This document shows, in pieces, positions 17,540-17,745 of a stretch of 64,000 bases of DNA. The first letter of the stretch is position 1; each line of letters begins with the position of its first letter. The translations under genes were made by a program, and so were the position numbers. This DNA is from Acidimicrobiia bacterium (GTDB lineage: Bacteria; Actinomycetota; Acidimicrobiia; Spongiisociales; ZC4RG35): assembly GCA_041742825.1 (NCBI GenBank), contig JBGTNX010000034.1, positions 105 to 64,104 on the forward strand. The letters are read 5' to 3'. The notes under the pieces were generated by a model. That model did not search any database and had not been told where the DNA came from. It saw nothing but the letters and a program-made list of their open reading frames with translations.

Positions 17540-17568
17540 TTGATTGATTCGCGCCCATGGCGTACATT
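17540..17568 (+). promoter_or_regulatory. Candidate sigma-70-type promoter TTGATT-N17-TACATT for the met leader
   Basis: The hexamers and spacing were read directly. The predicted TSS falls at about 17575-17577, at or next to the leader ORF ATG, which implies a leaderless mRNA. Confidence 0.35.
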
Positions 17569-17576
17569 CACCGCCA

Positions 17577-17642
17577 ATGGTTGATCGCAACGTGTCCCGA
17601 ATGATGTGCATGGCTTGTATGACAAGCCGTGCGGGATGCTGA
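17577..17642 (+). CDS. Candidate Met/Cys-rich leader peptide MVDRNVSRMMCMACMTSRAGC
   Basis: 21 codons plus TGA. Codons 9-15 are ATG ATG TGC ATG GCT TGT ATG. The ORF is embedded in alternative RNA structures upstream of metY and has no SD, consistent with leaderless initiation. Confidence 0.5.
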   Translation: MVDRNVSRMMCMACMTSRAGC

Positions 17643-17666
17643 CGAACGAACACCACCAGTAATCAG

Positions 17667-17702
17667 AAGATCCGCACCGGCATCGGTTGCGGATCTTTTT
17701 TG
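17667..17702 (+). terminator. Intrinsic terminator (attenuator) 44 nt upstream of metY
   Basis: AAGATCCGCACCG-GCAT-CGGtTGCGGATCTT forms a 13-bp stem with one bulge, followed by a T-run (6 T in total). It is oriented for the plus strand, and no plus-strand gene lies upstream. Confidence 0.75.
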
Positions 17703-17745
17703 ATTTGGGGCTGAGGCCGGGCAATCACCAACAAGGAGAACGCCG

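Follow-up and report, generated by a model that had tools for sequence, protein, structure and literature searches.

Textbook accounts of methionine gene control describe S-adenosylmethionine (SAM) riboswitches, T-boxes or repressors. Methionine and cysteine form a conspicuous gap among the amino acids placed under attenuator control, and to our knowledge an attenuator specificity for these two amino acids has never been demonstrated experimentally. The stretch considered here, 64,000 nucleotides (nt) of contig JBGTNX010000034.1 from an Acidimicrobiia bacterium (referred to below as the window), carries upstream of metY-metX a predicted attenuator with methionine and cysteine codons that appears to be the most complete case so far. 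The classical attenuators, represented by the trpL, hisL, leuL, thrL, pheL and ilvL leaders of Escherichia coli and Salmonella and by the actinobacterial trpL, ilvB and leuS leaders (PMC1262725), have, like the window element, a short open reading frame (ORF) containing clustered codons for the product of the pathway, and four RNA segments able to form three mutually exclusive helices, 1:2, 2:3 and 3:4, the last of which is a terminator upstream of the first biosynthetic gene. In both, the regulatory codons lie in or next to segment 1, and the stop codon lets a terminating ribosome cover segment 2. The window element differs from the classical leaders in its Met and Cys codons, in the lack of a Shine-Dalgarno sequence (SD), in its apparently leaderless start, and in having no homology to any Rfam leader family, with only sub-threshold similarity to Leu_leader and Thr_leader. 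A survey of the Actinobacteria available in 2005 reported no RNA element for methionine genes (Seliverstov et al., PMC1262725).

Met leader peptides have been predicted before, in Campylobacter and Streptomyces, neither of which has been analyzed mechanistically. An earlier note on the window, made from its sequence alone, had called a leader-peptide attenuator at metY-metX unusual; unusual it is, but not unprecedented (PMC3847290; PMC8079986). In Campylobacter jejuni, MetL, a predicted leader peptide of 20 amino acids with three Met codons, is encoded on a short terminated RNA upstream of metBA (cj1727c-1726c) (PMC3847290), and initiation of its translation has been seen by ribosome profiling (PMC11955535). 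Like the window element, MetL precedes a gene pair for O-acetylhomoserine sulfhydrylase and homoserine acyltransferase, which are functionally equivalent to metY-metX; unlike it, MetL comes with no noted Cys codons and no reported analysis of alternative structures or covariation, and the two share no sequence similarity. The metL ORF of Streptomyces lividans (MSTTSDRTPATEATTTPGARCMCRRMCAF), located upstream of metNIQ, is leaderless and was predicted to be a methionine attenuator, although a typical Rho-independent terminator is missing according to its authors (PMC8079986). It resembles the window element in being an actinobacterial leaderless ORF with mixed Met/Cys codons and Arg residues nearby, and differs from it in controlling a methionine importer rather than biosynthesis, in its unrelated sequence and in being a single-genome observation. 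The polycysteine leaderless short ORFs of mycobacteria (the "Cys ribulon") have been validated experimentally and, among systems with such backing, come closest in spirit to the window element (Canestrari et al., bioRxiv 10.1101/834739). As in the model for the window element, stalling at sulfur amino acid codons of a leaderless ORF relieves an inhibitory RNA structure and turns the downstream operon on. The mycobacterial mechanism is translational, however, with a poly-Cys tract pairing with the SD of the next gene and no intrinsic terminator, and it involves consecutive Cys codons only, upstream of Cys/sulfur genes rather than metY-metX. The window leader contains no poly-Cys run and has an intrinsic terminator instead; the metY SD (17733-17738) lies 32 nt past the U-run and is not paired with the leader in the folds.

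The window element is likely to be a classical ribosome-mediated transcription attenuator of metY-metX, reading charged Met-tRNA and probably Cys-tRNA via a leaderless ORF of 21 codons; this reading, put forward in the earlier note, is supported as far as sequence analysis reaches. A credible case can be made from the comparative data that it represents an undescribed attenuator family, distinguished by specificity for Met and Cys and by the leaderless start of its sensor ORF. The 278-nt spacer between a DUF3179 gene and metY holds the promoter, the leader ORF, the hairpin, the terminator and the metY SD, and on re-reading of 17400-17820 these features and the codon run were all located where the note had placed them. 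The first gene under the proposed control is metY (17746-19065, forward strand, ATG at 17746; TIGR01326, 698 bits against a cut-off of 495; Pfam PF01053), encoding an O-acetylhomoserine/O-acetylserine (OAH/OAS) sulfhydrylase and preceded by the SD AAGGAG (17733-17738, forward strand). It is followed by metX, for homoserine O-acetyltransferase (19062-20084, forward strand; NF001209, 338.6 bits against a cut-off of 331), and the two are considered one operon because metX overlaps the metY stop by 4 nt; the pairing is kept in all relative loci whose genes were listed. By its family annotation, MetY would be a bifunctional OAH/OAS sulfhydrylase. A mixture of Met and Cys codons in the leader makes sense, because MetX and MetY make homocysteine by direct sulfhydrylation and the pathway serves both sulfur amino acids.

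The element recurs in relatives. A MetY protein search limited to one genome per species returned Acidimicrobiia metagenome-assembled genomes (MAGs) as the closest, the best loci being L001 (80% identity) and L002 (79%). Both carry the element upstream of metY; other Acidimicrobiia at 75–77% MetY identity lack it. Nine further look-ups at 80–90% identity, chosen without regard to the leader (L081/L082, L083, L084 and L172-L177), all have it, so that the search for a Met/Cys-rich ORF and terminator proposed in the note was positive in 11/11 loci fetched by protein alone at 79–90% identity (L001, L002, L081, L083, L084 and L172-L177), the element lying 57–76 nt upstream of metY in each. Metagenome contigs were scanned with the pattern ATGATGTGC-N8-24-GCCGTGCG-N25-55-CCGCAC, which matched 87 stretches; inspection left 22 true copies, the other 65 being chance matches inside long ORFs or stretches without a short ORF and terminator. 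Wherever a true copy has downstream sequence, metY lies 57–76 nt past the terminator arm, and the scan gave no true copy before any other gene and no evidence of a wider regulon. Together, the protein look-ups and the pattern scan recovered every metY relative at an identity of at least 79%, and yielded 30 distinct versions of the element including that of the window. No second copy was found in the window, where the 17-mer CGAATGATGTGCATGGC occurs once even with three mismatches allowed.

The putative promoter of the window element consists of a -35 TTGATT (17540-17545) and a -10 TACATT (17563-17568) separated by 17 nt (17540-17568, forward strand), with 8 nt between the -10 and the leader ATG at 17577. 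All 30 versions have TTGnnn, a spacer of 16–17 nt, TAnnnT and an in-frame ATG or GTG 7–11 nt after the -10; the stretch in between is C-rich throughout and leaves no space for an SD, and the mRNA would therefore be leaderless or nearly so. From this conserved spacing, which supports the promoter proposed in the earlier note, transcription is inferred to start at the ATG at 17577 or no more than a few nt away, and the lack of an SD, with the start codon so close to the -10, is compatible with leaderless initiation. A simple promoter/terminator scanner gave no match at the leader and no scored promoter-like site between the terminator and metY, but this scanner is insensitive: it missed the promoter because the hexamers are below sigma-70 cut-offs (three of six matches to TATAAT and 7/12 overall), and the terminator because its stem carries a bulge.

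The leader ORF (17577-17642, forward strand) encodes 21 amino acids, MVDRNVSRMMCMACMTSRAGC, followed by a stop; it has no SD and is probably leaderless. Its codons 9–15 (17601-17621, forward strand), ATG ATG TGC ATG GCT TGT ATG, bring four Met and two Cys codons into a run of seven, in a window in which about 1.6% of codons are ATG and about 0.8% are Cys codons. With a Met/Cys score of 5.0, the leader is the sole short ORF in the window to reach the threshold of 3.5. The conserved core of the cluster, ATG ATG TGC ATG (17601-17612), is present in frame as Met-Met/Ile-Cys-Met/Ala in 30/30 versions; at least two Met codons and at least one Cys codon occur in every version, and at least two Cys codons in 29. 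The ORF is 19–24 codons long across the set, starting with ATG in 16 versions and GTG in 14 and with no other codon, and the core AUG lies 21, 24, 27 or 30 nt from the start in all 30. That this distance varies only by multiples of three argues for coding. The N-terminal codons vary freely by clade (MVDRNVSR, MRNVTSTR, MFGTKSTR, MKVVLRAR and MNVVFTRE), with NVTSTR well conserved inside one subfamily. The stop codon, UGA at 17640-17642 (forward strand) in the window, lies 6 nt past segment 2 when counted from the end of GCCGUGCG, and is 3, 6 or 11 nt past it in 30/30 versions, even after a frame shift. The N-terminal part of the leader would thus be coding-like, with frame and length kept rather than identity, and the C-terminal part a structured RNA that happens to be translated, a combination that is expected of a leader-peptide attenuator and that neither a riboswitch nor a functional peptide would readily explain.

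An Arg codon (CGA, AGG, AGA or CGG; 17598-17600 in the window) directly precedes the Met pair in 26/30 versions, the remaining four having Glu (Arg-Glu in L172-L174) or Cys-Glu (L177), and two purines stand directly 5' of the AUG AUG position in all 30. A pause at a rare Arg codon was rejected as the explanation: CGA is a minority codon yet not a rare one (about 14% of Arg codons), and Glu substitutes for Arg in one clade. The use of four different Arg codons hints at selection on the amino acid, and the leader could then be a sensory arrest peptide comparable to TnaC, SpeFL or plant CGS1, in which R-M-M-C-M-A would stall on Met, SAM or homocysteine in the exit tunnel and operate the same RNA switch. 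R-M-M recurs in an unrelated leader of another phylum (L059), and the conserved NVTSTR N-terminus of one subfamily would also fit. Such a peptide is nevertheless very unlikely. A stall at the cluster means read-through, so the inducing metabolite would have to signal shortage, whereas sensing of SAM or Met would call for the reverse; the nascent chain at the stall is 9–12 residues long, too short for the tunnel constriction used by known sensor peptides; and about four residues are common to all clades, two of which are accounted for by the pairing of segment 1. The N-terminal residues vary freely, and the Arg itself is replaced in L172-L174 and L177.

The leader RNA, of 129 nt, can form the three helices of an attenuator. 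Segment 1 (17607-17618, forward strand) consists of UGCAUGGC (17607-17614) and a clade-specific UUGU extension; it begins 6 nt after the first regulatory AUG, overlaps the Cys-Met-Ala-Cys codons and is the 5' arm of the 1:2 hairpin, whose arms were read as CATGGCTTGT (17609-17618) and ACAAGCCGTG (17622-17631) on the forward strand. Segment 2, (ACAA)GCCGUGCGGG (17622-17635, forward strand), can pair with segment 1 or, as an antiterminator, with segment 3. The terminator (17667-17701, forward strand; -19.7 kcal/mol) comprises segment 3, AAGAUCCGCACCG (17667-17679), a GCAU loop, segment 4, CGG-U-UGCGGAUCUU (17684-17697), and a U-run (17696-17701); its stem of 13 bp is GC-rich and bulged and is followed by U6. 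Part of the segment 3 region, at 17671-17681, can also pair with segment 2, and the best-supported register joins GCCGUGCGGG (17626-17635) to UCCGCAC(C)GGC (17671-17681) by ten pairs around one bulged C. The earlier note was right that segment 2 can pair with the terminator arm, but the register that it gave, GUGCGGGAUGCU with AAGAUCCGCAC, has only about seven pairs and overlaps the better one. Over the 30 versions, the consensus is UGCAUGGC, that is UGC(AUG/GCG)GC, for segment 1, GCCGUGCG for segment 2, and CGCACCGGC, more fully (A/G)(U/C)C(C/U)GCACCGGC, for segment 3, the 5' arm of the terminator, which is followed in these versions by segment 4 and a U-run. The hairpin loop measures 9–11 nt, with indels of +2 or -1 nt between clades, so that segment 2 begins 9–11 nt past segment 1; the spacer between the leader stop and segment 3 is variable. 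In one version (L176), the loop encodes Pro-Pro-Pro (MKIVFDARMIICMACPPPCDIDA), a sequence that normally needs elongation factor P (EF-P) for smooth translation. Segment 2 is read in different frames, as ...SRA... in the window clade (the window, L081, L088 and L090) and L155, and as ...EPC... in most others, yet GCCGUGCR is kept as nucleotides, and it is therefore conserved at the RNA level.

Folding of 17570-17705 with RNAfold gave -54.9 kcal/mol, compared with -38.5 ± 3.5 kcal/mol for 200 shuffled sequences, none of which equalled it (z = -4.76). The helices of the window are near-isoenergetic, at -18.1 (1:2), -18.1 (2:3) and -19.7 kcal/mol (3:4). Both states foreseen in the earlier note were obtained in 23/23 sequences folded (the window and 22 homologues): the unconstrained minimum free energy (MFE) structure is 1:2 plus the terminator, and when the leader is masked through segment 1 and the RNA is cut before segment 4, the MFE structure contains 6–8 of nine antiterminator pairs. 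With a ribosome mask at the stop codon, the terminator stays in the MFE structure in the window fold. The geometry also fits if footprint sizes known from ribosome toeprinting are applied: a ribosome stalled at the regulatory codons would cover segment 1 while leaving segment 2 exposed, and one at the stop would cover segment 2.

In an alignment of 29 sequences, standard pairs occupy 99% of the cells of helix 1:2, 91% of those of 2:3 and 90% of those of 3:4, and sliding one partner by 1–3 columns as a register control reduces pairing to 13–50% (13–47% for 1:2). A first alignment (A1) was uninformative about covariation in 1:2 and 2:3, the scan pattern having fixed those bases, and the informative variants came only from the protein-based look-ups. 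L172, L173, L174 and L177 have GCCGUGCA as segment 2 and CUGCACCGG as segment 3, and L172-L174 have GCAG in segment 4. The covariation that the note had suggested looking for was thus seen as a linked compensatory change in one clade, with G changed to A in segment 2, C to U in segment 3 and G to A in segment 4. The 2:3 pair concerned (76-123) is G-C in 25 sequences, A-U in four and unpaired in none; the same base of segment 3 forms C-G (25), U-A (three) or U-G (one) with segment 4, and the 1:2 pair at the changed position goes from U-G to U-A in the variant clade. A second terminator pair is C-G in 13 sequences, U-A in 12 and U-G in four, so that two stem pairs of the terminator, which is present in all 29 complete homologues, have compensatory changes.

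A segment 2 kept as the partner of both segments 1 and 3, with linked covariation, would be purposeless in a constitutive terminator. We give hardly any weight to the idea that there is no conditional control here, and that the terminator is a constitutive, leaky dampener or closes a gene for a small RNA or a small protein, for example one for a metal-binding peptide, metY being expressed by partial read-through or from another promoter. The peptide of the window clade does contain a CxxC-like CMAC, terminated leader RNAs and peptides can act in trans, as with rnTrpL/peTrpL of Sinorhizobium meliloti (bioRxiv 10.1101/606483), and the scanner that scored no promoter-like site between the terminator and metY is insensitive. 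However, the element is always coupled to metY. The C-terminal half of the peptide is unconserved and frameshifted between clades, which makes a functional peptide unlikely, and the frameshifts also led to the rejection of a metal-binding role for CMAC.

In the attenuator mechanism proposed here, transcription would begin at or near the leader ATG (17577), and a ribosome would load at the 5' end and reach codons 9–12 (AUG AUG UGC AUG, 17601-17612). If Met-tRNA or Cys-tRNA were scarce, it would stall there, and its footprint, extending about 12–15 nt 3' of the A/P site, would cover segment 1 (17607-17618), leaving segment 2 (GCCGUGCGGG, 17626-17635) free as segment 3 (UCCGCACCGGC, 17671-17681) emerged. 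The resulting 2:3 pairing would block the terminator, and RNA polymerase would read into metY-metX. If both tRNAs were charged, the ribosome would proceed to the UGA 6 nt past segment 2 and cover that segment, or would depart and allow 1:2 to form; in either case 3:4 would form and transcription would end at the U-run near 17701. The locus possesses the parts that such a mechanism calls for, namely a leader ORF, a cognate codon cluster, an intrinsic terminator, exclusive 1:2, 2:3 and 3:4 pairings and a suitable stall/stop geometry, and it offers a testable model for the sensing of methionine and cysteine through tRNA charging instead of SAM.

Several points weigh against this mechanism. With segment 1 masked in the full-length RNA, the terminator (-28.6 kcal/mol) is thermodynamically ahead of an enforced antiterminator (-21.5 kcal/mol), and the read-through decision must therefore be kinetic, as in trp. 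The second Met is replaced by Ile in L175 and L176 (AUU, in one or two copies; L175:1014-1147 and L176:1014-1150). UGC and the third AUG sit inside segment 1, and their conservation may be partly structural rather than codon-based. The attenuator model gives no reason for the Arg found in nearly all versions, or for the two purines, ahead of the Met pair. Segments 1–3 are mostly invariant, in part because segments 2 and 3 are each constrained by two pairing partners and in part because bases were fixed by the scan pattern, and the covariation amounts to one clade-level event plus wobble changes, the linked change representing one or two evolutionary events rather than many independent ones. 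Some versions would carry a 5' leader of 2–4 nt, for which translatability without an SD is assumed, and a shortage of methionine would also lower the charging of initiator tRNA and hence translation of the leader, which favours termination. The support as a whole is comparative, drawn from uncultured MAGs or metagenome contigs.

Known RNA families do not account for the element. A cmscan of the window against 4227 Rfam families gave nothing at gathering score except a tRNA, and at E ≤ 10 the region 17440-17800 matched only ctRNA_p42d (antisense), Leu_leader and Thr_leader, all far below threshold, three weak matches that mostly reflect the terminator hairpin. No covariance-model match was obtained to SAM riboswitches (SAM-I/IV, SAM-II/V, SAM-III, SAM-VI or SAM/SAH) or to T-box leaders, the known classes whose recognition here the earlier note had said would count against its reading. 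The same search detected a SAM-I riboswitch at the same position before metY in other Acidimicrobiia (L008 and L011), and one about 900 nt upstream of metY in a third (L009). SAM-I (RF00162) shares with the window element its position, its gene and its intrinsic-terminator output, both in L008 and L011 and in Ignavibacteria/Bacteroidota loci (L012, L023, L024 and L032); it differs in sensing SAM directly with an aptamer of roughly 100 nt, whereas the window element has no aptamer, has an ORF and would sense tRNA charging. The element thus appears to replace, at metY, the SAM-I riboswitch used by sister lineages, a case in nature of one gene exchanging its regulator for another.

That metY of sister lineages is under riboswitch control also raises the question of a switch independent of translation, such as a small riboswitch not yet described, or a leader bound by a protein or a tRNA, to which the ORF would be incidental. 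SAM, Met or a protein factor would then stabilize a longer form of the 1:2 hairpin, in which the invariant GAAUGAUGU sits in an asymmetric internal loop, and so favour the terminator. The ORF has no SD; in the MFE structure of the window, the Met codons fall within an internal loop of 9 nt in the 1:2 stem; two purines always precede AUGAUG; and AUGAUGUGC, GCCGUGCR and CYGCACCGG are invariant at the RNA level, with segment 2 kept across two frames. We regard such a switch as unlikely, since apart from the codon cluster there are no conserved unpaired nucleotides to form a pocket, and Rfam holds no match. The start codon is held at a set distance from the -10 and is only ever ATG or GTG, the distance to the core changes by whole codons, and the stop is kept just past segment 2 despite frameshifts. 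Furthermore, unrelated metY leaders in other phyla share Met/Cys codon content and not RNA sequence.

An unrelated Met/Cys-rich short ORF, identified by a simple score, lies upstream of metY in 9/80 genome loci, whereas 0.56% of control windows of 350 nt reach that score. In a locus from Eremiobacterota (L059, 2802-2935), a leaderless ORF encodes MSAHARMMTMSMCCFPQGSA, with Met/Cys codons that pair with the 3' end of the ORF; this end has an alternative partner in the 5' arm of a clean terminator, which is the logic of the window element in a different sequence. An ORF for MKTATLTQAMVMCMCMYMPELWVTSLAVDSI, followed by a terminator, is present in Acidobacteriota (L019, 2731-2880), and one ending in ..AVRAMTCMRCCRMPA lies about 150–235 nt upstream of metY in Propioniciclava (Propionibacteriales; L073), with no obvious terminator. 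Four loci from Ignavibacteriota/Bacteroidota (L012:2533-2930, L024:2513-2925, L032:2535-2905 and L023:2567-2950) have a Met/Cys- or Met-rich ORF with its own terminator, example peptides ending in ..NMAMCLSCMMMCSSTRMVSA, ..EAMCCCCMMMHRSSRKDTA, ..MAMRHCCMMMCNHIEGTQPI and ..LMIMHMIMRMHIS, and then a complete SAM-I riboswitch (RF00162) and a second terminator before metY. If the tandem arrangement is real, it would form a gate with two inputs, opened only when charged Met/Cys-tRNA and SAM are both low. It is quite possible, though less than likely, that Met/Cys leader ORFs are a widespread, repeatedly evolved and so far unrecognized form of metY control in which the ribosome reads the supply of sulfur amino acids. 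By this comparison, the Acidimicrobiia element may belong to a wider class that arose by convergence and that is in some cases coupled to the sensing of SAM. Considered alongside the tandem loci, it offers a starting point for studying how combined signals control the synthesis of sulfur amino acids, and it would help to annotate the leaders of metY better in Actinomycetota that are uncultured.

The MetY proteins of several Nostoc and Anabaena genomes (L003-L007 and L010) are 76–78% identical to that of the window, as close as those of other Acidimicrobiia, which points to an exchange of metY by horizontal transfer between Actinomycetota and Cyanobacteria; the leader element was not found in these six cyanobacterial loci. 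Elsewhere in the window, a tRNA gene (97-170, reverse strand) is the sole Rfam match at gathering score. Only 7 nt 3' of metX, a gene on the forward strand (20091-20636) encodes a protein with a YbaK/EbsC-like aminoacyl-tRNA editing domain (PF04073, 7e-29), which has sub-threshold matches to Cys-tRNA(Pro)/Cys-tRNA(Cys) deacylase models; such a gene also follows metX in L081. The possible co-transcription of a Cys-tRNA editing factor with an operon placed under Met/Cys codons is a curious pairing. On the other side of the spacer, the DUF3179 gene (16079-17467, reverse strand, start at 17467; Pfam PF11376, 4e-50) is preceded on the same strand by a mycothiol S-transferase/DinB-family gene (15555-16082; PF04978, 1e-44) and, within this neighbourhood (14843-16082), by an extracytoplasmic function (ECF)-type sigma-70 gene (14843-15529), which in L081 is followed by an anti-sigma gene (zf-HC2/RskA). 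The sulfur amino acid operon is thus adjoined by a neighbourhood of thiol and redox-stress genes.

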